Shown here one piece after another: positions 3,409-52,430 of a stretch of 64,000 nucleotides of DNA. The stretch spans positions 42,263 through 106,262 of the forward strand of contig JAHFFE010000002.1 in NCBI GenBank assembly GCA_023248155.1, read 5' to 3'. This DNA comes from Candidatus Omnitrophota bacterium (GTDB taxonomy: Bacteria > Omnitrophota > Gorgyraeia > 1-14-0-20-64-10). The notes beneath the pieces are model-generated. The model saw only the letters and a list, made by a program, of their open reading frames with translations. It had not been told where the DNA came from and ran no database searches. A program made the position numbers and the translations under genes. Every line of letters starts with the position of its first letter. Within the stretch, counting starts at the first letter, position 1.

Positions 3409-4457
3409 CCGTTGCGCGATAGCACAGTTAATCGGGAGCCCTCGGTTTTGAAGCCCGGGTTCCCGCCTGGATTTTTTACCAGCAGGTGCGAATCGAGGTC
3501 GATAAAATCAAATGCGCCGGTTCCGCAGGCCAGCGCCACGCTGGGCCAAAGCCCGATCGCCGATTCTGCCATGCAGCTGATCATTAATTTCAGATGGGCT
3601 TTGCGCGCCATCGCGATAATTTCCAGTGCTCCCGAAAGACCCGATTTCGCCAGTTTTACGCAAACCGCCGATGCCGCTTTCTTGCGGATAATTTTCCGCG
3701 CATCGGCCGCGCTGCGAGCTGATTCATCGGCGCAGACCGGAATTTTCAGCGCCTGCGTCACTTTTTTCAATTCCGTCAGCGCTTTTTTGGGCACCGGCTG
3801 TTCCAATAGATCCACCGGCCATGATCGGTCCAGTTGTTTCATAAACGCAAGTGTGGCCGCGGCGTTGCGGAAACCCTGATTCGCGTCGAGCCATAACCGC
3901 GCGCGGGGCGCTGCCGCATGCACCGCTTGAATCCGCTGAAGATCACCGTCAGCATCTCGGCCGGTCAGCTTGATTTTAAATGTACGGAATCCGCGCTGAT
4001 AAGCGGATCGCACCGCTCGGGCCGCATCGGCGGTGGGCCAGGCCGAGATCGTTAACGCCGTCGTGACCGATCGTTTTTTTCCGCCGAACTGTTTCCAGAG
4101 AGAAGTTTTGTTTGTGAGGGCAAAGGCATCGCGCAGCGCGCATTCCAGCGCGGCCGCTGCCGTCGGATAATGGGACAGTTTTTTCCAGCTGTTGCGGATC
4201 AATTTGGGATATTTTGAAATCGGTTTTCCGATGAGATCTTTTTTTAATCCGGACAGTGCGCGGCTCATTGCCGCTTGCGTTTGGTCGGGCCAGGCCAATG
4301 AGGCGGACGCTTCGCCGATGCCGGTGGTTTCATCGGACAATCTGATTTTTACCAGCAGATTCCGGCTCTCAGTCTTTTGTCCGCGCGCCGTGATAAAAAT
4401 CTGTTTCATCGGCAGGTTCCAGCGGAGAAGCTGGATTTTAATAATGCGCGGGGTCAC
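3405..4457 (-). CDS. L-Ala-D/L-Glu (dipeptide) epimerase, enolase superfamily (MR/MLE)
   Basis: 350 aa with KIKLTG, DANQG and ADES catalytic-region motifs typical of the muconate-lactonizing/dipeptide epimerase family. Adjacent to an NlpC/P60 peptidase, as in B. subtilis ykfB/ykfC. Confidence 0.75.
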   Translation of the reverse strand: MTPRIIKIQLLRWNLPMKQIFITARGQKTESRNLLVKIRLSDETTGIGEASASLAWPDQTQAAMSRALSGLKKDLIGKPISKYPKLIRNSWKKLSHYPTAAAALECALRDAFALTNKTSLWKQFGGKKRSVTTALTISAWPTADAARAVRSAYQRGFRTFKIKLTGRDADGDLQRIQAVHAAAPRARLWLDANQGFRNAAATLAFMKQLDRSWPVDLLEQPVPKKALTELKKVTQALKIPVCADESARSAADARKIIRKKAASAVCVKLAKSGLSGALEIIAMARKAHLKLMISCMAESAIGLWPSVALACGTGAFDFIDLDSHLLVKNPGGNPGFKTEGSRLTVLSRNG

Positions 4458-6328: not shown

Positions 6329-7637
6329 CGGTCAATTAAAACGGTCGCTCGGTTTGGTCGACGCCACGTCGCTGGTGATTAGCTGCGTGATTGGCGTCGG
6401 AATTTTCCGCACCGCTGCCTCCGTCGCCGCGCATGCGCAAGCCCCCTGGGTTGTTCTACTGGCCTGGGTCGTCGGCGGCGCGCTCTCATTTTTGGGCGCG
6501 TTGTGCTATGCCGAGCTGGGCGCCGCCTATCCGCAGGCCGGCGGCGATTATATTTATCTGTCGCGCGCCTACGGCCCCTGCGTCGGATTCCTGTTCGGGT
6601 GGACAAAAATATTGATCGAACGGATCGGCACCATCACCATTTTGGGCATCGTCTTTGCTGATTACCTGTCGCGGCTGGTTCATTACGGCCCCGATGTTTC
6701 CCGCGCGGTGGCCACGGCCGCGATCCTTTTGCTGACCGGCGTGAACATTCTGGGCGTTCATCTGGGGAAAAACCTGCAGAATTTTCTGGCCGCGCTTAAA
6801 ATCGCGGCGCTGCTGTTGATCATCGGCGTCGGGTTGTTTTCCGGCGGCGCGCACTGGGATTATTTAAGCACCAGCACCGTTGTCCGGATCAATGCGCAGT
6901 CGATCCAAATGTTCGGCATGGCGCTGGTTTTTGTTTTCTGGACCTACGGCGGATGGGAAGCCTCGGCCTATGTCGCTGAGGAGGTGAACGATCCTGCCCG
7001 CGTTCTGCCCTGGTCGATCCTCTATGGATTACTGATCATCACCGTTCTCTATCTGACGGTGAATATGGTTTATATGCTTTATGTTCCTCTGTCGCAGATG
7101 CCGGGCAAGCCGCTGATGGCCGCCGAGGTAATGAAACAGGCGCTCGGTCCCTGGGGTGAAAAGGGGACTTCGCTGATGGTCGCCTGTTCGGCGCTGGGAG
7201 CGCTCAGCGCGATGGTGATGACCAGCAGCCGCATCTTGCTGGCCGTCGGACGCGATCATGCGCTGATGAAACCGATGGCCGCCATTTCAGAAAAAACGCA
7301 TACGCCGGTCCGCGCGCTGCTGTTTAACGGAGTGGGCGCGGTTGTGCTGCTCTGGATCGGAACGTTCGACCAGATCGTCACCTATTCGACAGTCGCCATC
7401 GCCATTTTCTCGTCGATGGCCGCTTTTTCGGTGATTGTGCTGCGCGCGAAAGATCCGCAGACGCCGCGCCCGTATAAAGTCTGGGGTTATCCGGTAACGC
7501 CAGTGCTGTTCACGGGGGCGATGACGCTCTTTATCGGCAACGCGGCGCTGACATCGCCAAAAGATGCCGGTATCGGGTTCCTGCTGGTGCTGCTGGGAAT
7601 TCCGTTGTATCTTTTCTCGCGCTCTCTAAGAAAATAA
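6318..7637 (+). CDS. APC-superfamily amino-acid permease
   Basis: Real start at ATG 6318 (MSNNGQLKRSLGLVDATSLVISCVIGVGIF…), in frame with track ORF 5994..7637 and overlapping the M15 stop by 11 nt. 12-TM APC-type sequence. Confidence 0.8.
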   Translation: MSNNGQLKRSLGLVDATSLVISCVIGVGIFRTAASVAAHAQAPWVVLLAWVVGGALSFLGALCYAELGAAYPQAGGDYIYLSRAYGPCVGFLFGWTKILIERIGTITILGIVFADYLSRLVHYGPDVSRAVATAAILLLTGVNILGVHLGKNLQNFLAALKIAALLLIIGVGLFSGGAHWDYLSTSTVVRINAQSIQMFGMALVFVFWTYGGWEASAYVAEEVNDPARVLPWSILYGLLIITVLYLTVNMVYMLYVPLSQMPGKPLMAAEVMKQALGPWGEKGTSLMVACSALGALSAMVMTSSRILLAVGRDHALMKPMAAISEKTHTPVRALLFNGVGAVVLLWIGTFDQIVTYSTVAIAIFSSMAAFSVIVLRAKDPQTPRPYKVWGYPVTPVLFTGAMTLFIGNAALTSPKDAGIGFLLVLLGIPLYLFSRSLRK

Positions 7638-7691
7638 AACCGATGGGGGATTGTCTGTTTTTAAACGTTTCATTAATAAAGGAGAATCACA

Positions 7692-7841
7692 ATGACAAAA
7701 TCAATTCTGGCACTCGTGGCGGTTTTGGCAGTGGCGGCGGTTGCAGTGAGCGGCTGTTGCTCGATGAAGAAAAAATCGTGCGATCCGAAAAAAATGAACA
7801 GCTCATCGAGCGCCTGCTGTGTCCCCAGCGCAAAGAAGTAG
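7692..7841 (+). CDS. 49-aa Cys-rich mini-lipoprotein (unannotated small ORF)
   Basis: AAGGAGAA Shine-Dalgarno 7 nt upstream of ATG 7692. MTKSILALVAVLAVAAVAVSG|CCSMKKKSCDPKKMNSSSSACCVPSAKK has a lipobox-like VSGC and five further Cys in CC…C…CC spacing. Below the track's 60-aa cutoff. Confidence 0.5.
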   Translation: MTKSILALVAVLAVAAVAVSGCCSMKKKSCDPKKMNSSSSACCVPSAKK

Positions 7842-7853
7842 GATTAATTTACT

Positions 7854-10103
7854 ATGCCCCGGCCGAGCGGATGGCGCAGTTCCGTTGGCCGGGTTCTTTT
7901 TCTGCTGATTTTGACGGCCGGCTGCCGCACTGCGGGACTAACGCCGGTGAATCCTGAGGCGGAAATGCATTCCAACCGGTTAGCGCGCGAAAAAAGTCCC
8001 TACCTGCTTCAGCACGCCCATAACCCCGTCGACTGGTATCCCTGGAGCGACGAGGCGTTCGAGAAAGCCCGCCGCGAAAACAAACCTATTTTCCTGTCGA
8101 TCGGTTATTCAACCTGCCATTGGTGCCATGTGATGGAGCGCGAATCGTTCGAGAACGATGATCTGGCCGCGGTTCTGAACGCGTCATTCGTTTCCATTAA
8201 AGTCGATCGCGAAGAACGGCCCGATATCGACGGCATTTATATGCAGGCCGTGATGCAGATGACCGGGCATGGCGGTTGGCCGCTTTCTGTTTTTTTGACA
8301 CCCGACAAGAAACCGTTTTATGGTGGAACTTATTTTCCGCCCGAAGACCGCTGGGGCCCGCCCGGATTTAGATCACTGCTGCGCGGCGTGATGAACGCCT
8401 GGGAAAACAAGCGCGCTGAAATCGAAAAATCGGCCAGCGGCATGACCAAAGCGTTGGCGCTCGGCGAAGAAGGGCAGGCGCACCCGCCTGAATCAGAACC
8501 TGCCGGGCGCGCTGTTTTTGACCGTGCATTCATGGCGCTGGAATCGGTTTACGATTCCGTTCACGGCGGTTTTGGAGATGCGCCCAAATTTCCGCGCCCG
8601 CACCTGCTTTTTTTTCTGAACCGCTACGCGCGCCGCGCCAAAAATCCGCGCGCGCTCGAAATGGTCGAGGGAACATTGCGCGCGATGGCTGCCGGCGGGA
8701 TTTGCGATCAGTTGGGCGGCGGCTTTCACCGCTACTCCACCGACGCGCATTGGCACCTGCCTCATTTTGAAAAAATGCTGTATGACCAGGCGCTGCTGGC
8801 CATCGCCTATCTGGAGGCCTATCAGATTACGGGGAAACAAGAGTATGCCCAAACGGCGCGCGCTATCTTCGATTATGTTCTGCGCGATATGACCTCTCCG
8901 GAGGGCGGGTTTTATTCGGCCGAAGATGCGGACAGCGCCGTTGATGCCAGCCAACCGAAGCGCAAGCATGAAGGGGCTTTTTATGTTTGGATGGCGAAAG
9001 AGATCGAGCAGCTGCTGGATTCCGAATCGGCTGCTGTTTTTTCTTACGCCTATGGTATCGGCTTGCACGGTAATGTGACCGAAGATCCGACGGGCGAATT
9101 TCCCGGTAAAAATCATTTGTACCGCGCACGCTCTCTAACCGAGACGGCGCAGCATTTCAAAAAACCGGAGCCGGAAATCGAGTCCATATTAAAGGAAGCT
9201 CGCGTGAAACTATTGCAGGTTCGCACCGGCCGGCCGCGTCCGCATTTAGACGATAAAATTCTTGCCGACTGGAATGGTTGGATGATTGCCGCATTCGCGC
9301 TGGGCGGCCGCGTTTTGCAGGAGCCGCGCTATACGCAGGCCGCCGAACGCGCGATGCAGTTTATTCTGCGTTCGATGGTTCGCTCCGACGGGCGTCTGCT
9401 CCATCGTTGGCGCGGCGGGGAAGCGGCCATTCCGGCAATGCTCGATGATTACGCATTTTTGGCGCATGCATCGATTGAGCTGTATCAGACCACCGGAAAA
9501 ACAACTTATTTAGCCAAAGCCGTCCATTGGACGCGCCGCCAGATTGAACTGTTCTGGCAGGAGGAACCGGCCGGATTTTTTCTCACCGCGCATGATGCCG
9601 AACAGTTGCTGCTCCGTCCGAAGGAATGGACCGACGGCGCGATCCCATCGGGCAATTCGATGGCCGCGGTTAATCTACTCCGCCTCGGGCGGATGACCGG
9701 CGAATCTGATTTTGAGAAACGGGCTGAGCAGATGCTTCGCGCGCAGTCGGCCGCGATCACGCGCAACCCGACCGCTTATCCGCAGGCGCTGGCCGCGCTC
9801 GATTTTTTGTGGGGGCCGACGCGCGAACTGGTGCTGGCCGGTTCTGCCGACGATCCTGTTTTCCAGCGGATGCGCGCCTGGACCGACCGCACATTCCTGC
9901 CGGACACGATCGTCTTGTATCACACGGCCGATGCCGAGGGCCAAGCGCTCGAGAAGGTCGCTCCGTTCGTAAAACCGCAAATTGCGCCGGCCGGCAAGAC
10001 GGCCGCCTACCTCTGCGAGGGCCGGACCTGCCAGGCGCCTGTCGGGGAACTGGATTCGTTGAAACAGCGGTTTGAATTTCCTTCGGCCGATCAGGTACAA
10101 TAA
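7854..10103 (+). CDS. YyaL/DUF255 thioredoxin-domain protein fused to an N-acylglucosamine-2-epimerase-like (six-hairpin) domain
   Basis: NPVDWYPW and [14 protein letters not shown] motifs typical of the DUF255 thioredoxin domain. Long alpha-alpha toroid-like C-terminal part. The 7854 start adds a lipoprotein-like leader (LLILTAGC); an alternative start at ATG 7965 ([18 protein letters not shown]) has a better GAGG Shine-Dalgarno. Confidence 0.85.
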
Positions 10104-40528: not shown

Positions 40529-41926
40529 TTAATTACCGGCGCCGGTATTGCGCGCCAGTGCGAAGAACGATTCGGCCACATCTTCGGCCACCTGCCCGTT
40601 GCGGATCAAATCCATGATGGAACGCTCCAGCGTGTACATCTTGGCGTTTCCACCGGTTTCAATCACGGAAGGCAGCTGGGAAAGAGTGCCGTTGCGGATA
40701 ATGTTCCGGCCGGCCGAGGTGGGCACGAATACCTCGGTGGCGAGTGCCAGCCCGCCCTCAAGCGCTTGTTCGCGCGGAATCAGGTACTGCGTCAAGACTC
40801 CCTGAAGACAGCTGGCCAGCTGGAAGGTTGCTTGCTGGCGCTGTTCCGGCGAGCAAATAGTCGCGAACCGGTCGATCGCCTGCACGGTGTTGGTGGCGTG
40901 GAACGACGCGAGCACCAGCGTGCCGGTTTCAGCCGCGTTGAGAACTACCTGCGCCGTTTCAGCGTCATCGACCTCACCGACGACAATGACATCGGGGTCC
41001 TGCCGCAGCGCGCGGCGCACGGCCTCGGCGAATGACAGCGTATCGGAACCCACCTCGCGCTGTTTGATCACCGCTTTTTTGTTTTGGTGAATATATTCAA
41101 TCGGCCGCTCCAGGCAGATGACGATGGCATCGCGATCTTCGTTGATCTGTTCCACCAGGCTGTTGAGCGTCGTTGTTTTTCCGGACCCCGTCGGGCCAAC
41201 CACCAGAATCAGGCCGCTGTTTTTGCGCGTCCAGTCAATGACTACCGACGGAAGCCCCAGTTTTTCCCAATGGGTTACTTTCGCCGGGATACTGCGGATT
41301 GCTGTCTCGACCTGGCCGCGCTGCCAATGCACATTCAGGCGGAACCGTTGCGTGACCGAGATCGAGTAGGCCAGATCCATCTCCCGCTGTTTCTCAAACA
41401 TGCAGATCTGCTCATCGGACATGACACTATAGACCAGCGAACGGATCTCGCCGGGTTTCAAAATTGGAAACTTCATCGGCTTGAGCCGTCCGCGCACGCG
41501 CGCGATCGGCGGGCTGTTCGTGGTTAAATGCAGGTCGGAACCGCCCATTTTGATTAATTCTTCCAGCAGGTTGCGGATATCCATCGTTTCCAGCCGCTGC
41601 AAGATTTCGATGGCGCTGGAAGGATCGATTCTTTCGAACTGCAGGCCAAGCCAATATTTTTGCGCCGGGATTTTTTCTTCCACGCGAATGACGCGGCAGT
41701 TGGCCAGCAATGTTTGATTGTACCCGGGAACATGCAGCTGCAACCGTATCGCCGCGCCGATTTCCACAGGGGAAGCGGTGTTAATGAGCGCGCCGGTTGA
41801 GCTGACATTAACGGTGGTGGAGGGAAGCAGTACTCCGAAAGGAGCACCGTCTTTCAGCAGCTGATACGCTGCCACATAGGCCAGTTGGGCGCGATACGCG
41901 CGCGATGTTTCAGTAGTGTTCGCCAT
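40529..41926 (-). CDS. PilZ-domain/PilT-family retraction ATPase fusion
   Basis: N-terminal ~110 aa contain RAYRA (RxxxR) and NVSSTG ((D/N)xSxxG) c-di-GMP-binding PilZ motifs. C-terminal part is PilT-like (Walker A VVGPTGSGKTTTL, Asp box, His box). Confidence 0.75.
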   Translation of the reverse strand: MANTTETSRAYRAQLAYVAAYQLLKDGAPFGVLLPSTTVNVSSTGALINTASPVEIGAAIRLQLHVPGYNQTLLANCRVIRVEEKIPAQKYWLGLQFERIDPSSAIEILQRLETMDIRNLLEELIKMGGSDLHLTTNSPPIARVRGRLKPMKFPILKPGEIRSLVYSVMSDEQICMFEKQREMDLAYSISVTQRFRLNVHWQRGQVETAIRSIPAKVTHWEKLGLPSVVIDWTRKNSGLILVVGPTGSGKTTTLNSLVEQINEDRDAIVICLERPIEYIHQNKKAVIKQREVGSDTLSFAEAVRRALRQDPDVIVVGEVDDAETAQVVLNAAETGTLVLASFHATNTVQAIDRFATICSPEQRQQATFQLASCLQGVLTQYLIPREQALEGGLALATEVFVPTSAGRNIIRNGTLSQLPSVIETGGNAKMYTLERSIMDLIRNGQVAEDVAESFFALARNTGAGN

Positions 41927-42003: not shown

Positions 42004-43446
42004 TTAGCTTGAATAGGTGATAACCACCCGCCCGACGGCGCCGTTATTGGATCCGGACGGAGATCGGGCAAACCAGCCGCATCCTCCGCCTCCGGGAGCT
42101 ACGCCGTCTGTTCCGATAAAGCGTGAACTGTTCAATTCACCAACGCTTCCGGCGCCACCATTTCCTCCGCTTCCTCCCGCCCGTTGGTATAATGTAAAAA
42201 ACGGCGCTATGGCATCCTGGCCCGAAATATTAAATGTTGCCGTACTGGTTCCGCCTCGTCCTACAATAGCTCCTTCAATTCCTCCAGAGCTTCCGCCTCT
42301 TCCGCCTGTAGCGCTAACAGCAGGGGGAACATTCAGTCCTGTTACGGAGGAGGTGCCGCCGTTGCCTCCGGTATTTGAATTTGTTTTCTGACCTGTTCCT
42401 CCGGCACCGACCGTGATGGTCAAAACGGCTCCAGGTGTTACCGTCGCGAGTTGTCTGCCGTAACCTCCACCTCCACCTCCGTGACCAAACTGAGCGCCGC
42501 CAGCGTTGGGGCTTCCGCCACCGCCACCTCCACCTCCCCAAACTTCAACTGTGACTCCTGTTACTCCGGCCGGTACAGTCCAGTTCGTTGCTCCGGCTGT
42601 GCCAAATACCACTTGCGTTGTCAGGCCTACGCTTCCGCTTACGGAGGCTAAAATAGTAGTCCATGCTGTTCCGTTGTAGAGATTTAATTGGTTCGTAGTG
42701 GTGTTGTAAATTATCAGCCCGGCTACTGGACCGGCAATCGCGTTCCGCTCGGCCGTGATCATTCGAGGAGGGAGAAACCCCTTTGTCGTAGAAGTCAGAT
42801 CCAATGCCGCCGATGCGGCCGGCGCCGCCGTTCCGATCCCCACATTCCCGCCCAGAGGGTTCAACACCAGGTTTCGGAAAGCCACATTCTGTGACTCCGC
42901 TTGAATGTAGCCGGTATTGGTAAAGTTGGTGCTGTCGTAATCCCGGTTGAACCCCAGCGCTAGGCCTCCATTCCCCGCAGCGAGGCTCGGCGTGTTCAGA
43001 TAAATGCCGCTTTGCCCGTTCGCTGAAATCCGCGCCCCGCTGGCCCCAGCTACATCCAACGCGTAAGCGGGGGCCGCCGTCCCAATCCCAACCCGTATTC
43101 CCGGAGTTCCCGGCACTCCAGCGTTGTCTGCTCCAGACGAGAAAATGACATTACTGATGGCGTCATCGGCCCCCACCACATGCAGCGGTCCCTGCGGGTT
43201 GGTAGTCCCGATACCCACTGGACCTACGATGAACGCCGCGCCATTGTTTAGAGGAGGGGTTGGCGTTGCCTCAAAATCGGTTCCGACCGTTAAGCTTTGG
43301 AGATGTTGATTGCCTGTGTTGGACGAAGAGGGGTAGTAGGTGACCAGTTCGACGGTTTCCGCCCACGCGTAACCGGCGAGGATGCCAATGATGAGGAATA
43401 AAAACAATGCGTTGCCGCTGGAAAACCTGCTTTTAATTTTTATCAA
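42004..43446 (-). CDS. Secreted glycine-rich protein with tail-fibre-like repeat motifs
   Basis: Signal peptide. Repeated VGIGTTNPQGPLHV, NVGIGTAAP…LDL and KGFLPPRMT…YNGTAW motifs reminiscent of phage tail-fibre/collar modules. C-terminal GGGGGGG-rich region. Confidence 0.5.
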   Translation of the reverse strand: MIKIKSRFSSGNALFLFLIIGILAGYAWAETVELVTYYPSSSNTGNQHLQSLTVGTDFEATPTPPLNNGAAFIVGPVGIGTTNPQGPLHVVGADDAISNVIFSSGADNAGVPGTPGIRVGIGTAAPAYALDVAGASGARISANGQSGIYLNTPSLAAGNGGLALGFNRDYDSTNFTNTGYIQAESQNVAFRNLVLNPLGGNVGIGTAAPAASAALDLTSTTKGFLPPRMITAERNAIAGPVAGLIIYNTTTNQLNLYNGTAWTTILASVSGSVGLTTQVVFGTAGATNWTVPAGVTGVTVEVWGGGGGGGGSPNAGGAQFGHGGGGGGYGRQLATVTPGAVLTITVGAGGTGQKTNSNTGGNGGTSSVTGLNVPPAVSATGGRGGSSGGIEGAIVGRGGTSTATFNISGQDAIAPFFTLYQRAGGSGGNGGAGSVGELNSSRFIGTDGVAPGGGGCGWFARSPSGSNNGAVGRVVITYSS

Positions 43447-43522: not shown

Positions 43523-44023
43523 GTGGTAGCTTCCTATACAATGAACCGCTGGAGACCCGTTCTCACGATGATCGCCGCGCTGGCGGCCGGTTTTGCCATC
43601 GGCGCCGGGATCGGCTGGATCCACCGCCAATCGCGGCCGGCACCCGCTCCGGCGCTTCCGGCCCAAACCCAGTTTCGCATCAACGGCCTGATCGATATCC
43701 ATCCGAAATTCAAAAAAAGAGTCAAGCAGTCCGATGTTTTATTTCTCGTGGTTCGTCTTGAAGGGCAGGCCGTTCCGTACGCGGTTAAAAAAATAGCCCC
43801 GGTTTCTTTTCCTCTGCCATACGCGATTGGCCCCGAAGACCGGATGCTCGGAGAAGCGTCGGAACCGCTGAGTCCCGGCCGCAAAATCTCGCTGGCGGCG
43901 CGGCTGGACCACGACGGAGAAGTGTCTGCGAGTCCCGGGGATTTGGAGGGGAGCCCTGCCGAAGGATCATTCGAGTTGCCCGCCGATTCTCTGCATATTT
44001 TAATCGACCGCGTCGTGAAATAA
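43523..44023 (+). CDS. Hypothetical membrane-anchored protein
   Basis: N-terminal TM (PVLTMIAALAAGFAIGAGIGWI); no motif recognised. Directly upstream of the ECF sigma gene. Confidence 0.4.
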   Translation: MVASYTMNRWRPVLTMIAALAAGFAIGAGIGWIHRQSRPAPAPALPAQTQFRINGLIDIHPKFKKRVKQSDVLFLVVRLEGQAVPYAVKKIAPVSFPLPYAIGPEDRMLGEASEPLSPGRKISLAARLDHDGEVSASPGDLEGSPAEGSFELPADSLHILIDRVVK

Positions 44024-44028
44024 AGGGG

Positions 44029-44054
44029 GGAACTTTTTCCTGAACAAGGGGTCT
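44029..44054 (+). promoter_or_regulatory. ECF-type promoter P1 (GGAAC-N17-GTCT) in front of the sigma gene; probably autoregulated
   Basis: -35 GGAAC at 44029-33, 17-nt spacer, -10 GTCT at 44051-54, only 2 nt before ATG 44057, which implies a leaderless mRNA. Confidence 0.55.
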
Positions 44055-44056
44055 TT

Positions 44057-44641
44057 ATGAGTGACGCGGAGCTGGTTGAACAAGCGCGTGCCGGAGACCG
44101 GCAGGCATTTGATCAACTGATGCAACGCTATGAGCGCGAAATGATCGGCGTGGCCTATCGAATGCTGGGCCACTCCGAAGACGCGGTCGATTTGGCACAG
44201 GAGGTGTTCTTGCGCGCCTGGCGCGGGCTCGGCCAGTTTCGCGGCGAAGCGTCGTTTCGCAGCTGGCTTTACCGGATCGCGCTCAATCTGGCGCGCAACA
44301 AACGCCGGTGGTACGCGCGCCATCGGATTGCTTCGATGGTTTCATTAAGCCCGTCCGACGAAGAGACCGAAGAAGGGGACCCTGCGCCGGTTGTACCGAT
44401 CGCTGACCCCTCGACGGATCCGCGTGCCGAGGCGCAGGCGAGTCAGTTTCAGGAAGCGGTGCGGCAGGCGTTGGAAAAACTTCCGGCGGAATTTCGGGAA
44501 ACGGTGATATTAAGGGATATTCAACAGTTGTCGTATGAGGAAGTCGCGCAAGCGACCGGACAACCGGTTGGAACGGTCCGGTCGCGGTTATCCCGCGGCC
44601 GGCATTTGCTGCGGGAAGCGTTAAAAGGAATTTATCCATGA
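44057..44641 (+). CDS. ECF (group IV) sigma-70 factor
   Basis: Region 2 (…DLAQEVFLRAWRGLGQFRG…SWLYRIALNLARN) and region 4 HTH (LSYEEVAQATGQPVGTVRSRLSRGR). Confidence 0.9.
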   Translation: MSDAELVEQARAGDRQAFDQLMQRYEREMIGVAYRMLGHSEDAVDLAQEVFLRAWRGLGQFRGEASFRSWLYRIALNLARNKRRWYARHRIASMVSLSPSDEETEEGDPAPVVPIADPSTDPRAEAQASQFQEAVRQALEKLPAEFRETVILRDIQQLSYEEVAQATGQPVGTVRSRLSRGRHLLREALKGIYP

Positions 44642-45591
44642 ACTGTCAGCAGTGCAGCGAACATCTTTCGGCGTACCTTGACGGACTGCTGTCGGCCTCT
44701 GAGCGGCAGGCGCTGGAGAGCCATTGCGCCGGCTGCGCCCGGTGCGCGGCGGAACTCGCCGATCTTCAGAAAATCCTGATAGCGCTTCCTCAATTGCCGC
44801 AGCCGCCGGTTCCGGAAAATTTCCGCCGCCGTGTCTGGTCTGAGATCGACCGGAAAGGACGGCCGCTCGATTCCTGGCTCATTAAATTGCCGGTAGGCGC
44901 TTTGGCGACGGCGGCCGTTATTTTATTGGTCGCGCGGGTTTCGCAAGATACCATGCCGCAAATGAAGGAACAGGCCGTGCTTTCCGATGTTGCCGCTGCT
45001 CGTTTTGCCGAGCCGACTATGCGACAGCAGAAGGCAGCTCCGCTTGCTGAACAAGAAGAATCAGTATCTGCAAAGGTCATTAATCAAGATAAAAACAAAA
45101 TGGAGTTAAAAGACAAAGCCGATCGATCCGAAGAAACATTGGGAAAATCCCAATCGGTTTCAGCGGCCGCGTCGCCTCAATTAGCGCCGCAACAAAACAG
45201 GGCTTCTATGAAAATGTTGGAAACGGAAGATGGAGAACTTGTTTCTGGGAGGAAAATGTCCGCCGATAGTTCTTCGGCAGCCAGCTTGGTTGCCGATGGT
45301 TTGGAAGATAAAAAATCCAGTTTCGATTCTGCTTATGGCGAATCTGAGCGATGGTTTTTAAGAGTAGAAGATCCATCGGCTACGCAGGTTTTGGTTAGGC
45401 ATATCCTCCAAGAAATGAATGCTTTCAATATTCGGTCGATTTCGCCCTACATAACCGAATTTCAGGTCTCGTTCGGCCAACGCGATTCTTTAAAACAGTA
45501 TTTAAATGAACTGGGCGATCTTCAGCAAGTATCTTCGGAAGATTCCACAATCGAAACAATAACCATTATTGTTCTCCAGCGAACATCGTAA
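44638..45591 (+). CDS. Zinc-binding (ZAS-type) anti-sigma factor, single TM, periplasmic C-terminal domain
   Basis: ATGA overlap with the sigma gene. CQQC…HCAGCARC HxxxCxxC-type motif. TM at PVGALATAAVILLVA. Confidence 0.75.
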   Translation: MNCQQCSEHLSAYLDGLLSASERQALESHCAGCARCAAELADLQKILIALPQLPQPPVPENFRRRVWSEIDRKGRPLDSWLIKLPVGALATAAVILLVARVSQDTMPQMKEQAVLSDVAAARFAEPTMRQQKAAPLAEQEESVSAKVINQDKNKMELKDKADRSEETLGKSQSVSAAASPQLAPQQNRASMKMLETEDGELVSGRKMSADSSSAASLVADGLEDKKSSFDSAYGESERWFLRVEDPSATQVLVRHILQEMNAFNIRSISPYITEFQVSFGQRDSLKQYLNELGDLQQVSSEDSTIETITIIVLQRTS

Positions 45592-45598
45592 ATTTTTG

Positions 45599-45624
45599 GG
45601 AACTTTTTCTTCCGCCCGGTGTCT
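45599..45624 (+). promoter_or_regulatory. ECF-type promoter P2 (GGAAC-N17-GTCT) before the precursor-MNIO operon
   Basis: GGAAC at 45599-603, GTCT at 45621-24. About 55 nt including the 5' UTR and GGGAGG Shine-Dalgarno are nearly identical to P3. Confidence 0.6.
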
Positions 45625-45653
45625 GCATCAGTAGAAAAGGGAGGAATAAACCA

Positions 45654-45863
45654 ATGAAAATTCCAGCGTCAGTGTTAGCGGTCATGTTGGTTGGATTGGG
45701 AAGCGTCGGCGTGATGGGCTGTGCCGCGCACCAGACTCCGACTGAAAAAGCACCCAAAAATAAACCGGACTCTGTTGAGCCGGCTGCCAACCCCCAACCC
45801 GAAACACCGAATCGCCCGAGTCGTTCTGCCGGTTATGAGTGTCGTGCCTGCGGAATGGGATAA
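45654..45863 (+). CDS. 69-aa secreted/lipobox peptide with C-terminal YECRACGMG; candidate RiPP precursor
   Basis: MKIPASVLAVMLVGLGSVGVMG|C signal + lipobox. Pro/Glu-rich linker, C-terminal CxxC. Immediately upstream of the DUF692 gene and behind the GGGAGG Shine-Dalgarno of P2. Confidence 0.55.
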   Translation: MKIPASVLAVMLVGLGSVGVMGCAAHQTPTEKAPKNKPDSVEPAANPQPETPNRPSRSAGYECRACGMG

Positions 45864-45865
45864 AA

Positions 45866-46738
45866 ATGGGGATTCCTCTCGTAGGGCTGTCGTTAATGCC
45901 GGAGGACCCCTTTCGTCAGGCGGCCTACCCTCTTTTTGAAGCGGGGGAAGTCGATGTTCTGGAATGGAGTTTTGATATGGGGTGGGCCGGCGCTCCGTTG
46001 CCTGAATGGATGGAGCAACTGCTCCATCTTTATGGGCAGCGGGGCCGCCTGCTGGGGCATGGAGTTTCATTTTCGCTCTTGTCCGGACAGTGGACCGACC
46101 GCCATCAGAGGTGGCTGCAATTATTATCGGAAGAAGCCACTCGCCACCGGTACCGGCATATCTCCGAACATTATGGATTTATGACGGCCGGAACTTACCA
46201 GAAAGGGGCTCCATTACCGGTCCCCAAAACTCCCGATACAGTTCGTCTCGGGCAGGACCGGTTGCGCCGGCTGGCCGAAGCGGCCGGATGTCCGGTCGGG
46301 CTGGAAAATCTGGCGTTTGCGTTTGGCGCTCATGATGTTTGGGATCAAGGTTCTTTTTTGGAAGAACTGCTGGAATCAGTGGATGGCTTTCTTCTGCTCG
46401 ATCTTCATAATCTCTACTGCCAGTCGGTAAATTTCAAAGCGCCTTGGACTGAATTAGTCGCGCAATACCCGCTCCATCGCGTTCGGGAGCTGCATCTTTC
46501 AGGCGGGTCCTGGTTCGCCGGTGAGCCGTCTTCCCGCTATGAACCGATCCGGCGCGATACGCACGATGGCGCTGTGCCCGAGGAACTTTTCGCTATGCTG
46601 CAGTCCATTTTGAAACGGGCTCCGGCGGTTGAAGCGGTAATTCTCGAACAGCTGGGCGATTCATTAGAGAGCGACGAATCGAAGGTTCGATTCCAGGCCG
46701 ATTACCGGAAAATTCGGGCGATTGTCCATGGACAATAA
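45866..46738 (+). CDS. DUF692 / MNIO (multinuclear non-haem iron oxidative) enzyme, MbnB/TglH/BufB-like
   Basis: Start at ATG 45866 (MGIPLVGLSL…), 3 nt after the peptide stop. HGVSFSL, SEHYGF, PVGLENLAFAF, LLLDLHNLYCQSVNF, VRELHLSGG and RRDTHDG match the conserved DUF692 TIM-barrel blocks. Confidence 0.8.
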   Translation: MGIPLVGLSLMPEDPFRQAAYPLFEAGEVDVLEWSFDMGWAGAPLPEWMEQLLHLYGQRGRLLGHGVSFSLLSGQWTDRHQRWLQLLSEEATRHRYRHISEHYGFMTAGTYQKGAPLPVPKTPDTVRLGQDRLRRLAEAAGCPVGLENLAFAFGAHDVWDQGSFLEELLESVDGFLLLDLHNLYCQSVNFKAPWTELVAQYPLHRVRELHLSGGSWFAGEPSSRYEPIRRDTHDGAVPEELFAMLQSILKRAPAVEAVILEQLGDSLESDESKVRFQADYRKIRAIVHGQ

Positions 46739-46934
46739 AACCTGCGAAGATAAAAACCTCGATAATTTCCAAAGCCGCTTGCTGGAGCTTATGCTGCAGC
46801 CGCTCTCGCAAGAACAGCGCTGGAGAGCTCTGAAAACAGACCCTCTTTTTATACCCTACCAGAACTACATCGCCTCATTTGATCCGCGCATGATGGAAGT
46901 GGCCGCGCAGATTATCCGGAAATGGACTGTTTAG
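46722..46934 (+). CDS. 70-aa protein resembling only the N-terminal (substrate-recognition) part of the DUF2063 MNIO partner
   Basis: Overlaps the MNIO 3' end by 17 nt. LDNFQSRLLELMLQP…YQNYIASF pattern resembles the DUF2063 N-terminus; the C-terminal domain is absent. Confidence 0.4.
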   Translation: MSMDNKTCEDKNLDNFQSRLLELMLQPLSQEQRWRALKTDPLFIPYQNYIASFDPRMMEVAAQIIRKWTV

Positions 46935-46937
46935 CCG

Positions 46938-46963
46938 GGAACTTTTTCCTCCGCCCGGTGTCT
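46938..46963 (+). promoter_or_regulatory. ECF-type promoter P3 (GGAAC-N17-GTCT) before the 639-aa secreted protein gene
   Basis: GGAAC at 46938-42, GTCT at 46960-63; near-duplicate of P2 including UTR and Shine-Dalgarno. Confidence 0.6.
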
Positions 46964-46991
46964 GCATTAGTAGAAAAAGGGAGGAACGACG

Positions 46992-48911
46992 ATGACTATT
47001 CAAACAAAGATTTTCGCGATTGCGGTGGCAGCGGTAGCGTGGATTACAGCCGGCCAGTCTTTTGCCGAGGCAACGACCGAGCCGTATTCATTGGAGCAGG
47101 GCCGTTATTCCGCGGTTGTCGACGGGGAAAAAGTTAAAATTCAGGCGGCGCTGGAATTCAAGGTGCTTGAAGACGGCCTGATCCAGATTCCGGTTTCGTT
47201 TGGCGGCGCCGAAATTCTGGATCTGAAATTATCCGGAGGATCCGCCGTGTTGGCGGTTGAGAACGACCAATACACGGTTCGGATTAGCCGCAAAGGAACC
47301 GTTCGGCTGACGGCCATGTTGATCGTGCCGTTGTCGCGCAATGCGGATCAGGAAGGGTTTTATCTCGAGATTCCGCAGGCGGTTTTTTCTTTCTGCACGG
47401 TCACGGTTCGGCGCGCCAGCGTGCAGTTAAGTCCTAATTATGCGGCCGCCGGAACCAGTCAGACCCGCGGCGATCAGACGATCATTACGCTGCCGTTGGG
47501 CTTAAAGCGGCAGGCCCAGGTTTTCTGGACGGTCCGCCCAATCCAGGAAACGCCGAAAACAACAGAACCGGTGGAGCCGGTTTATTTGGCGAATCTGCAG
47601 CTGCTGGGCACGCTGGAAGAAGAAACATTCCGTTGTTTGGCCACCGTTGATTTGCATCTGCTGCAGGGCGAATTAAAAACGGCTTTGTTCGAGCTGCCTT
47701 CGGGCTGGACCGTTACCGGGGTGCGCGGGGGTTCCGGCATTGCGGATTGGAAGACCGAGGCGGCCGGTTCGAATCAGCAGATCACGGTTATTTTCAACCA
47801 GCCGTTCAAGGAGGGGAACCTTCGTCTGCTGATTGATGCCGAACAACCGCTGAGCAGCGGCAGTGCCTCGGTTTCTTTGCCGAGTATTATTCCGGTCGGC
47901 GCAAAACGGTTAACGGGCCAATTGGCGCTGGCAACGGCCACGGCCATGGAATTGAAAGATCCGGTGATGGAAGGGGTCAAGCGGATCGATGTCCGGGAAT
48001 TGCCCGACGAATTGCGCGCGATGGCCAACGCGCCGGTCGTGGCGGCATTTCGTTATATGGAAGCCCCTTACCATGTGACGACCCAATTAATCCGTCCCGA
48101 AGAATTGCCGGTATTGGTGGCGATCGCTGAATCGGGAGAGTTAATCACGGTGGCTGCGCCGACGGGTGAAACCATTACGCGCGCGATTTATCAAATCCGT
48201 AATAACAAAAAAACAACGCTGAGCGTCACACTGCCGGCGGGGTCTACGCTCTGGTCGGTGCTGGTCGACCAGCGTCCGGTGAAGCCGTCGGCCGGACCGC
48301 GCGGGCAGATTCAAATTCCGATCATGAACAACCATGGTCCGGAAACGGTCTTCCCGGTGGAAATCGTCTATGTCCAGAAAACCGGTTCATTGAAATCGTT
48401 ACTTGGCCAAGTCCGTTACGAAGGTCCCGGCCTCGATATCCCGGTCACCGTTTCGTCCTGGAAACTGCTTTTACCCGACGGATTGATAAAGATCGGTTAT
48501 TCCGGCAATGTAGAAGCTGGTTTTTCGGTGAACACGGTGCCAGTCGAATTGGCTGCTTATCGCGATGTTTCGGCGAATGCGGCGCTCCGACGGGACTCTG
48601 CCCGATGCCAAAAAGTATTAGCCGCTGCTCCGGCAGCGCAGTCGTTGGCCGATTGCGAGTATAAGGTAAAGGAAGAATTTCAGGAGGTGGTTGGTAAAAC
48701 TCAGCAAACCGGCGTGCTGCCGTTCCGGATTTCAATTCCGCAGAGCGGCCGCGTTTACCGGTTTGGCCGGTTGCTGGCCGTCAACGAGCCGATGTCGGTC
48801 CAGATTAATTATGTCCGGACATCCGCAATGCCGTTCGCCAGCGGCGGAATGGTGTTTGTTGGATTGATGGGGCTGGCGGGTGTTGCCCGGCTGGTTCGTG
48901 CCAAGAAGTAA
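46992..48911 (+). CDS. Large secreted beta-rich protein with C-terminal TM anchor; member of the ECF regulon
   Basis: Signal peptide MTIQTKIFAIAVAAVAWITAGQSFA, C-terminal GGMVFVGLMGLAGVARLVRAKK. No catalytic motif recognised. Confidence 0.55.
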   Translation: MTIQTKIFAIAVAAVAWITAGQSFAEATTEPYSLEQGRYSAVVDGEKVKIQAALEFKVLEDGLIQIPVSFGGAEILDLKLSGGSAVLAVENDQYTVRISRKGTVRLTAMLIVPLSRNADQEGFYLEIPQAVFSFCTVTVRRASVQLSPNYAAAGTSQTRGDQTIITLPLGLKRQAQVFWTVRPIQETPKTTEPVEPVYLANLQLLGTLEEETFRCLATVDLHLLQGELKTALFELPSGWTVTGVRGGSGIADWKTEAAGSNQQITVIFNQPFKEGNLRLLIDAEQPLSSGSASVSLPSIIPVGAKRLTGQLALATATAMELKDPVMEGVKRIDVRELPDELRAMANAPVVAAFRYMEAPYHVTTQLIRPEELPVLVAIAESGELITVAAPTGETITRAIYQIRNNKKTTLSVTLPAGSTLWSVLVDQRPVKPSAGPRGQIQIPIMNNHGPETVFPVEIVYVQKTGSLKSLLGQVRYEGPGLDIPVTVSSWKLLLPDGLIKIGYSGNVEAGFSVNTVPVELAAYRDVSANAALRRDSARCQKVLAAAPAAQSLADCEYKVKEEFQEVVGKTQQTGVLPFRISIPQSGRVYRFGRLLAVNEPMSVQINYVRTSAMPFASGGMVFVGLMGLAGVARLVRAKK

Positions 48912-48991
48912 AAAGAGTGGGCTCCCTGACCAGGTTTTCAGGGAGCCCGGTTCTTTGTTCTTTTTGATTCTCTGCGTGGTAAAATAACAGT

Positions 48992-52251: not shown

Positions 52252-52335
52252 TGCCGAGGGAGAGAATCGAACTCTCATGGGGTTGCCCCCGCAGGTTTTT
52301 GAGACCTGTGCGTCTACCGATTTCGCCACCTCGGC
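52252..52335 (-). tRNA. tRNA-Leu (anticodon CAA)
   Basis: Minus-strand cloverleaf GCCGAGG…CUCAAAA…long variable arm…GAGAG-UUCGAUU-CUCUC…CCUCGGC-A. CCA is not encoded. Confidence 0.85.
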
Positions 52336-52357
52336 GGGAGAATGAAGAGAAAATTTA

Positions 52358-52430
<73 letters not shown>

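Follow-up and report, generated by a model that had tools for sequence, protein, structure and literature searches.

Introduction

The locus described here raises the question of which peptide product its compact set of biosynthetic genes would make, and how these genes came to stand among regulatory genes that are older than they are. [quoted passage not shown] An earlier note on this DNA had described six open reading frames (ORFs) here, all of which are present at or near the positions it gave; they were also called independently on an identical public contig, L039 (SRR14366787). In that note, the locus was taken as a bufferin-like RiPP candidate with an atypical precursor, belonging to a divergent or undescribed MNIO subfamily. 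The reading reached here is a different one, and it is held with high confidence: the locus is a chryseobasin-like 'DAG-RiPP' cassette (precursor, MNIO core and detached Hc) that was inserted in a pre-existing Omnitrophota ECF regulon.

It has been reported that ChrH turns the C-terminal CPACGMG of ChrA into a macrocycle plus an imidazolidinedione (PMC10214503), and that the wider ChrH/DybH subfamily acts on CPxCGxG (PMC13056109). Precursors of the DybA type carry a lipobox, are triacylated via the lipoprotein pathway, as found for lipo-DybAH by mass spectrometry of membrane fractions, and have been named 'DAG-RiPPs' (PMC13056109, PNAS 2026). All ChrH/DybH members have an extra C-terminal helical bundle of ~7.8 kDa, which in Cyanobacteria/Melainabacteria is a separate protein, MelHc, that binds MelH and is needed for activity (PMC13056109). 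The four-electron oxidation to a macrocycle plus hydantoin and the lipidation by Lgt/LspA/Lnt have been shown for homologues (PMC13056109), the macrocycle/hydantoin chemistry having been demonstrated experimentally only for ChrA, DybA, ChsA, HymA, ArlA and MelA1 (PMC10214503, PMC13056109). The chemistry of ChrH/DybH products is known, and their biological role is explicitly stated as unknown (PMC13056109).

The MNIO Enzyme

The MNIO gene (45866..46738, + strand) encodes a 290-aa maturase of the ChrH/DybH/MelH subfamily. A GTG at 45839 was considered as its start and dropped for the more likely ATG at 45866, to which both the N-termini of homologues and gene calls made independently point. The protein matches PF05114 at 1.6e-31 in Pfam, so the earlier assignment of an MNIO/DUF692 RiPP locus, together with its expectation that the enzyme would match DUF692 models, stands. 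Among the NCBIfam models, NF050165 MNIO_ChrH is by far the best match (2.9e-102), followed by BufB (2e-24), HvfB (2.6e-20), ApyH (4.5e-9) and MbnB (2.4e-3), and the ChrH alignment spans model positions 2–283 of 363. The closest solved relative by sequence is TglH (8hci, 3.6e-13). Ten residues (H65, H102, E147, D179, H181, N182, H210, D231, H233 and E261) are invariant in 40 MNIO homologues; they are presumed, with the aid of the TglH alignment, to correspond to the metal ligands of MbnB/TglH. As judged from these alignments, the enzyme is assigned to the ChrH/DybH (chryseobasin) subfamily, of which it comprises the core TIM-barrel part only, and it is predicted to be catalytically competent, the residues of metal-ligand type being all invariant.

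In several Polyangiaceae metagenome-assembled genomes (MAGs; L028–L031 and L034), MNIO homologues of 41–43% identity run into frames of ~710 aa with an extra C-terminal region, and a CxxCGxG ORF was not found upstream of them. These enzymes may form a different sub-clade with another substrate.

The Hc Subunit

Directly downstream is the small ORF 46722–46934, whose likeliest start is ATG 46728, giving a protein of 68 aa (Hc; 46728..46934, + strand) that overlaps the MNIO gene by 11 nt. This product had been taken as a reduced DUF2063 partner of about 70 aa. DUF2063 was rejected for it: the ORF itself has no Pfam match at E<=0.1, and its 19 aligned orthologues give only scattered chance matches at E<=10. 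DUF2063 itself is matched at E<=10 neither by the ORF nor by any of 18 orthologues. A word-indexed protein search with the 70-aa ORF returned itself and one relative only, and a PDB profile search with Hc gave nothing meaningful.

The identity of Hc comes from synteny, natural fusions, hidden Markov model (HMM) matches and a structure model. By phmmer/tblastn (E<=0.01), an Hc homologue stands directly 3′ of the MNIO, or is fused to it, in 25 other loci; it is separate in Verrucomicrobiota, Cyanobacteria, Chlamydiales, Planctomycetota, Acidimicrobiia and some Myxococcota, and fused in Obscuribacterales and Labilithrix. In BLASTP, Hc matches the C-termini of two natural fusions, P0041 (9e-10) and P0099 (2e-7). 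When the MNIO and Hc sequences are artificially joined, the ChrH match widens to positions 2–361 of 363 and gains 10 bits (352.5). The family has the consensus LAxFQxxLLELL...FDPRMLEVAAxLVKKWG, and the AlphaFold2 model of Hc alone is a four-helix bundle with a pLDDT of 83. In summary, the small ORF is the separately encoded C-terminal helical-bundle domain of the ChrH family, similar to MelHc, and not a DUF2063 remnant. Since lipidated CPxCGxG precursors and a separate MelHc subunit have already been characterised (PMC13056109), the idea of an undescribed subfamily falls away as well.

The Precursor Peptide

The precursor gene (45654..45863, + strand; MKIPASVLAVMLVGLGSVGVMGCAAHQTPTEKAPKNKPDSVEPAANPQPETPNRPSRSAGYECRACGMG) encodes a peptide of 69 aa, DybA/ChrA in type, which ends in YECRACGMG, and its stop codon is followed after a gap of 2 nt by the MNIO start. 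The peptide consists of a lipoprotein signal peptide, a Pro/Lys/Glu-rich linker and the C-terminal core C63-R-A-C66-G-M-G69, and the mature form has just two Cys, in CxxCGxG context. It matches the NCBIfam model ChrA_rel_RiPP ('chryseobasin-related MNIO class RiPP peptide') at 8.7e-8. The N-terminal segment MKIPASVLAVMLVGLGSVGVMG, followed by C23, satisfies the lipobox rule in the style of PROSITE PS51257 (K2, an uncharged h-region, VMGC and Cys at position 23), and the residue at +2 after Cys23 is Ala. The same rule is also satisfied by precursors in Myxococcota and Planctomycetota loci and in L047. The earlier view of a Sec-exported precursor with a lipobox, in which the C-terminal Cys pair is the probable modification site, is thus retained.

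With the MNIO, 38 related genome loci were fetched, and in 31 of these a CxxCGxG-stop ORF lies at most 430 nt upstream of the MNIO gene on the same strand. Among 38 CxxCGxG-stop ORFs, 31 have Pro at position 2 of the motif, and the other 7 have A, E, T, G, Y or I there. The window core has Arg for the Pro of CPxCGxG and keeps both Cys and both Gly. In the closest relative, L044, whose MNIO is 87% identical, the precursor reads MKIPASLLGVMLIGLGSVGVMGCAAQQ...DYCPPCGRG; it has almost the same signal peptide as in the window and keeps both lipobox and Cys/Gly core, and the linker is variable, from which it follows that the Arg is a recent replacement of Pro. The expectations of the earlier note that a small Cys peptide accompanies the homologues of this MNIO, and that the C-terminal cysteines are conserved, are borne out by the 31 loci and by the CPPCGRG of L044, respectively. 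The "atypical" label is not: by its HMM match and by the recurrence of CxxCGxG in the related loci, the precursor would count as a typical member of the ChrH/DybH family apart from its Arg for Pro.

Two variants were observed among the related loci. In the Obscuribacteraceae MAG L017, a fused MNIO gene is followed closely, in convergent orientation, by the gene of a 264-aa protein (7200–7994, − strand) whose C-terminus reads ...HICYGCGRG; with Tyr for Pro, this protein resembles a large substrate of the MelA1 type. In L048, an MNIO of 59% identity is directly preceded by a 135-aa ORF (1419–1826, + strand) with the C-terminus CKKCSRG, in which Ser for the first Gly is possibly a variant core motif.

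The ECF Regulon and Its Putative Promoters

The sigma gene (44057..44641, + strand) encodes a group 4 ECF sigma factor, RpoE-like, with regions 2 and 4 only (Pfam Sigma70_r2 7e-18, r4_2 7e-15); the NCBIfam sigma70-ECF model is matched at 3.6e-34, above its cutoff, and orthologues of 57–58% identity occur in the Omnitrophota loci L040 and L042. The anti-sigma gene (44638..45591, + strand) shares its first 4 nt with the end of the sigma gene. Its membrane-spanning product has an N-terminal zf-HC2 domain (Pfam 3e-8) with the finger H29-x3-C33-x2-C36, read from the translation, one hydrophobic segment (~residues 80–101) and then a C-terminal extracytoplasmic part of ~215 aa; its match to the NCBIfam anti-sigma model (7e-13) is below cutoff. 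The p639 gene (46992..48911, + strand) encodes a conserved envelope protein of 639 aa, in which an N-terminal signal peptide is followed by tandem beta-sandwich domains and, at the C-terminus, a transmembrane helix. Searches of Pfam and NCBIfam gave no match for p639, and just 38 homologues of it are detectable.

There are three copies of the motif GGAAC-N17-GTCT in the 64 kb (44029, 45599 and 46938), all within the locus; by chance 0.34 sites are expected, and three were reached in none of 100 shuffles. P1, a promoter-like motif of ECF type (GGAACTT-N16-TCTTTA; 44029..44057, + strand), is upstream of the sigma gene. P2 (GGAACTT-N16-TCTGCA; 45599..45627, + strand) is ahead of the precursor gene and is followed by a leader of ~20 nt with the Shine–Dalgarno sequence GGGAGG. 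P3, of the same form (46938..46966, + strand), would be the ancestral promoter of the p639 gene. P2 and P3 form a direct repeat, with a distance of 1339 bp and 93% identity across 44 nt, the leader included; P1 shares 61% identity only. Accordingly, the earlier description of a locus behind ECF-type promoters and beside a pair of ECF sigma factor and zinc-binding anti-sigma (ZAS) factor is confirmed, and of its "three near-identical promoters" the three sites remain, near-identity being restricted to P2 and P3. The GGAAC-N17-GTCT motif matches the E. coli sigma-E consensus GGAACTT-N16-TCTGA.

The −10 element of P1, TCTTTA (44052–44057; GGTCTTTA), overlaps the Shine–Dalgarno sequence (AAGGGG) and the ATG of the sigma gene. 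A transcript from P1 would be predicted to start within the ORF. The arrangement is the same in L044, and L040 and L042 have a normal leader of 17–40 nt. The gene of an Ig_CycH-like small exported protein (43523..44023, + strand; Pfam Ig_CycH 3.5e-12; start probably 43568) is located just upstream of the sigma gene in the window; in L040, L041 and L042 the Ig_CycH orthologues adjoin p639 instead, standing 3′ of its homologue. Because of this synteny Ig_CycH is linked to the regulon, and its move to a place just upstream of the sigma gene may have removed the P1 leader.

The corresponding position in L044 holds a diverged P2 copy. What P2 retains in the two genomes is GGAAC, the 17-nt spacing, GTCTGCA and the correct distance from leader and Shine–Dalgarno sequence to the ATG, although the spacer has diverged; such a pattern is expected if promoter function is under selection. 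After the −10 element, the 5′ leaders of P2 and P3 are nearly identical within each genome and different between genomes (window 45622–45653 vs 46961–46991; L044 2914–2944 vs 4280–4311): the window leaders read CAT(C/T)AGTAGAAAA(A)GGGAGGAA, and L044 has CATAGCTAAAGGGAGGAAC in both copies. This likeness would fit gene conversion between the repeats or, alternatively, a leader element common to both.

An intrinsic-terminator-like hairpin of 12 bp with 8 G-C pairs, followed by a T-rich tail (48918..48949, + strand), closes the transcription unit. No comparable hairpin was found between the anti-sigma gene and the precursor gene, or between Hc and p639, so that co-transcription of the cassette with the regulon genes is likely even without P2.

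Probable Insertion of the Cassette into the Regulon

The history of the locus was read from five genomes. L040 (Omnitrophica MAG GCA_023818545.1) and L041 share a backbone of PilZ-PilT, ECF sigma, zf-HC2 anti-sigma, promoter, p639 homologue and Ig_CycH, continuing into DUF212, LysM-YkuD, AccA, CobA and LeuRS, and L042 is similar. Identity between the window and these three relatives is 72–75% for AccA, 72–75% for LeuRS and 80–83% for CobA. Together with the synteny, these values point to an Omnitrophota origin of the window, in which no rRNA gene was found. Neither the peptide nor the MNIO nor Hc is present in the shared backbone of L040, L041 and L042; of the five genomes, just the window and L044 have the cassette, placed after the anti-sigma gene and before p639, with a promoter and leader at both of its ends. 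In the relatives, an equivalent of the motif precedes the sigma genes of L040 and L042, and the motif itself precedes the p639 homologues of L040, L041 and L044 and the p639 operon of L042. Since the motif precedes both sigma and p639 in cassette-free relatives, sigma, anti-sigma and p639 constitute the ancestral regulon, and p639 would be the ancestral target gene of the ECF sigma factor.

As to p639 itself, a single ECF-promoted operon of L042 (2633–7783) encodes a 182-aa protein and an 853-aa VIT/VWA protein ahead of the p639 homologue. More remote homologues have a CarboxypepD_reg domain at the N-terminus; in L046 (3947–8223) they are tandem paralogues next to a TonB-dependent receptor.

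Outside this lineage, the nearest relatives of the MNIO (57–59% identity) are found in the same compact three-gene unit in unrelated neighbourhoods, one of them next to a DDE transposase gene, and the combination of a precursor of the lipidated type with split MNIO/Hc is also present in the MAGs L010 and L016, L007 and L011, and L047. In the earlier note, bufferin operons were said to be often under ECF control. By phmmer, an ECF sigma gene within 6 kb was found in 0 of the 38 homologous loci in other phyla; a family-wide sigma partner was rejected for these phyla, and ECF control is probably a local acquisition in the window lineage. The most economical reading is that a mobile three-gene cassette entered an ECF regulon that was already there and that the promoter was duplicated in the process. 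In L049 (6428–7321), an MNIO-Hc pair beside ribosomal-protein genes is followed ~330 bp further downstream by the gene of a DDE-type transposase; this fits mobility of the MNIO unit. Upstream of the MNIO in L049, the called 44-aa ORF does not encode a CxxCGxG precursor.

Proposed Mechanism

Gene content, family membership and motif conservation were computed in this analysis; the steps of chemistry, lipidation and regulation that follow are what we infer from them. An envelope signal would inactivate the membrane anti-sigma factor and free the ECF sigma factor, which would drive P2 (precursor, MNIO and Hc, probably with read-through into p639) and P3 (p639), and transcription would stop at the hairpin 48918–48949. 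Precursor, MNIO and Hc would be translated as a coupled unit, given the 2-nt gap and the 11-nt overlap. In the cytoplasm, an MNIO·Hc heterodimer would carry out a four-electron oxidation of C63-R-A-C66-G-M-G69: the sulfur of Cys63 would be crosslinked to the former Cys66, closing a small macrocycle, and the Cys66-Gly-Met backbone would be rearranged into a hydantoin. A thiohemiaminal thiol would be left (−4 Da, as in DybA and MelA1), and S-methylation would be possible (+10 Da, as in ChrA). The modified precursor would then be exported by Sec, diacylglycerylated at Cys23 by Lgt, cut after Gly22 by signal peptidase II and possibly N-acylated. The expected end product is a 47-residue membrane-tethered lipopeptide, whose flexible Pro/Lys/Glu-rich tether bears the macrocycle at its distal end. 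With the arrival of the cassette between the anti-sigma gene and p639, this lipopeptide would have become co-induced with the original envelope protein.

What the product would do is a more tentative matter. It is conceivable, at rather long reach, that the tethered macrocycle is an inducible envelope-protective or envelope-sensing effector of an ECF envelope-stress regulon; on that reading, its target at the membrane surface might be a pyrophosphate-lipid or a metal/thiol ligand, and p639 might work with it.

Weighing of the Evidence and Rival Explanations

Several points weigh against the inserted-cassette reading and its mechanism. The MNIO scores 342.5 bits on the ChrH model, below the NCBIfam equivalog cutoff of 600, and the precursor scores 32.8 bits on ChrA_rel_RiPP, below the model cutoff of 40. 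Both models are centred on Bacteroidota, and the natural fused homologues P0041 and P0099 likewise reach just 355–359 bits on the ChrH model; because natural fusions from other phyla also fall short, the cutoffs are read as clade-specific, that is, the 600-bit cutoff marks the Chryseobacterium-type ChrH and not the wider subfamily. None of the 38 related precursors has Arg at motif position 2, and in the ChrH/DybH literature consulted for the comparison no non-Pro substrate has been tested. The chemistry is proposed by analogy with homologues of at most ~40–57% identity, and processing by signal peptidase II was judged by a PROSITE-style rule. As for regulation, promoter function is suggested by motif conservation only. 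With its −10 element on the Shine–Dalgarno sequence and the ATG, a P1 transcript could not encode full-length sigma; the function of P1 is therefore doubtful, and any positive autoregulation in the window lineage is putative. Finally, the direction of insertion was read from three genomes without and two with the cassette, and loss of the cassette in the L040–L042 relatives, instead of gain in the window lineage, is the alternative.

The bufferin-like reading supposes a metal-stress RiPP with a divergent MNIO subfamily, a reduced DUF2063 partner and ECF control as in Buf1, in which Cys would be converted to thiooxazole or oxazolone-thioamide for copper binding. The MNIO fold, the conserved metal ligands and the exported Cys-containing precursor agree with it, and so does the adjoining sigma/anti-sigma pair, as in Buf1 biosynthetic gene clusters (PMC12452194); a subset of bufferins is also predicted to be lipidated. 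Against this, the BufB model (NF050167) gives 86.3 bits where its cutoff is 310, with an E-value 78 orders of magnitude worse than that of ChrH. Neither a DUF2282/Buf2 precursor nor DUF2063 nor DoxX was found: in Pfam, DUF2282 has no match at E<=0.1 and DUF2063 none in any neighbouring ORF, and the HMM libraries used hold no Buf2 HMM. Moreover, the anti-sigma factor is of the zf-HC2 and not the NrsF kind, the core CxxCGxG is the signature of ChrA/DybA, a modified DybA homologue lacks the absorbance of the aromatic groups of bufferins or methanobactins, and the sigma/anti-sigma pair is older than the cassette. This explanation is regarded as extremely improbable. Scarcely better placed is a decaying locus, in which a frameshift would have cut Hc off a once-fused ChrH-like gene, leaving an inactive enzyme and a degenerating precursor marked by Arg for Pro. 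The 11-nt overlap of MNIO and Hc in different frames, the fused versions in P0041, P0099, Obscuribacterales and Labilithrix, and an Arg not found elsewhere at position 2 all speak in its favour. They are answered by the split form, which is kept in L044 and in several phyla with its own start overlapping or abutting the MNIO stop, and by the published finding that separately encoded MelH and MelHc form a stable complex in which both are needed for activity. Hc shares 76% identity with its L044 counterpart, no catalytic residue has been lost, and 7 of the 38 precursors have a residue other than Pro at position 2.

A less remote but still unlikely possibility is that the cassette is a mere neighbour of the regulon, that is, P2 is a non-functional by-product of duplication and expression of the RiPP is constitutive or from another promoter. 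Transcription is inferred from sequence alone here, and P1 illustrates a good motif match in a non-functional position. In L044 the P2 copy is more diverged than P3 (GGGAACTTTCTCTTTTAGCCGGGGTCTGCA vs GGGAACTTTTTCTTCCGCCCGGTGTCTGCA), and a scan for sigma-70-type promoters gave nothing convincing either way. On the other side, P2 keeps motif, spacing, leader and Shine–Dalgarno sequence in both genomes despite the divergence of the spacer, and with no terminator flanking the cassette, co-transcription is likely even if P2 were silent. The inserted-cassette reading is accordingly preferred to all of these.

Significance

On the more tentative effector reading, the wiring of the cassette into an ECF envelope-stress regulon would offer the first hint from physiology of what ChrH/DybH RiPPs do, and the flanking promoter repeat would likewise show a general 'plug-in' route by which compact RiPP cassettes enter stress regulons. 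A cassette behind a recognisable ECF promoter and beside the sigma/anti-sigma pair gives the testable hypothesis that the product has an inducible envelope function. Split MelH/MelHc enzymes and precursors of the lipidated type reach well past the phyla emphasised in PMC13056109, the MAG phyla here being Omnitrophota, Verrucomicrobiota, Planctomycetota, Chlamydiales, Acidimicrobiia and Myxococcota; in the literature search, no paper linking Omnitrophota with DUF692 was found. The predicted Arg-containing macrocycle variant would widen the substrate range. The significance is limited: the host is uncultivated, the family was described before, and what is understood of MNIO chemistry stays as it was. 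The proposed regulatory capture is lineage-specific, mildly informative and the single unusual feature of this locus; it does not define a new MNIO subfamily.

Neighbouring Genes

Next to the Ig_CycH gene, a 480-aa secreted glycine-rich protein (42004–43446, − strand; Pfam Gly_rich_2 1e-12) is encoded between it and the PilZ-PilT gene. The precomputed annotation of L039 labels this protein PTL_trimer, and L040 is without it at the syntenic position. The PilZ-PilT gene itself (40529–41926, − strand) encodes a PilT/T2SSE-type ATPase with an N-terminal PilZ (cyclic di-GMP-binding) domain; in the Omnitrophota relatives L040, L041 and L042 a PilZ-PilT-type ATPase gene adjoins the sigma gene. Further downstream, two adjacent tRNA genes (52252–52430, − strand; Rfam RF00005, 59 and 67 bits) are located upstream of the LeuRS gene.

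Comparison with Known Systems

The regulatory half of the locus resembles RpoE-type ECF/ZAS pairs in its overlapping stop and start codons, HxxxCxxC finger, single transmembrane segment and GGAACTT-N16-TCTGxA targets; unlike in these pairs, the putative autoregulatory promoter of the window is mis-spaced relative to the sigma start codon. Bufferins (PMC11626156, PMC12452194) share with the window the MNIO superfamily, Sec-exported Cys precursors and, in Buf1, a sigma/anti-sigma pair. However, they belong to another MNIO clade and have a DUF2282 or 6/12-Cys precursor, DUF2063, DoxX and NrsF, which the locus lacks, and by analogy a macrocycle plus hydantoin would be expected in the window, in contrast to the thiooxazole of bufferins.

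ChrA/ChrH of Chryseobacterium is closer: the MNIO is of the same subfamily by best HMM match, and the C-terminal core likewise has two Cys. The differences are that ChrA has a signal for signal peptidase I (SPI) and no lipobox, that ChrH is fused (a model of 363 positions) and that the product is S-methylated (+10 Da). In addition, the window locus is without three proteins of the chr operon, namely ChrI (DUF1772), an epimerase and an M42 peptidase.

DybA/DybH of Dyadobacter crusticola agrees with the window in having a precursor with a signal peptidase II (SPII) lipobox and a CxxCGxG core directly upstream of a ChrH-subfamily MNIO, with no RiPP recognition element (RRE) or DUF2063 partner; by analogy, a lipid-anchored macrocycle plus hydantoin (−4 Da) would be expected in both. 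The helical bundle is fused in DybH, whereas in the window it is a separate 68-aa protein; the core is CPACGMG in Dyb and CRACGMG in the window, and the hosts are Bacteroidota and Omnitrophota, respectively. The Dyb genes stand beside SusC/SusD/TonB genes, whereas the window cassette stands behind an ECF promoter in a regulon of sigma factor, anti-sigma factor and envelope protein. Sigma-70 domains have been reported in ~20% of Bacteroidota DybH-type neighbourhoods and in none of the MelH type (PMC13056109 SI).

It is with MelA1/MelH/MelHc, from a Melainabacteria MAG, that the enzyme itself agrees, an MNIO core of ~290 aa being followed immediately 3′ by a helical subunit of ~70 aa. MelA1, reported to dock at the tri-iron site of its enzyme, is a 34-kDa TPR protein with an SPI signal that is not lipidated, whereas the substrate in the window is a 69-aa peptide of lipoprotein type, and the published MelH-type neighbourhoods are without a sigma factor, whereas the window has an ECF sigma. 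In summary, the locus joins a precursor of the lipidated DybA type with a split enzyme of the MelH/MelHc type, both of which have been published.

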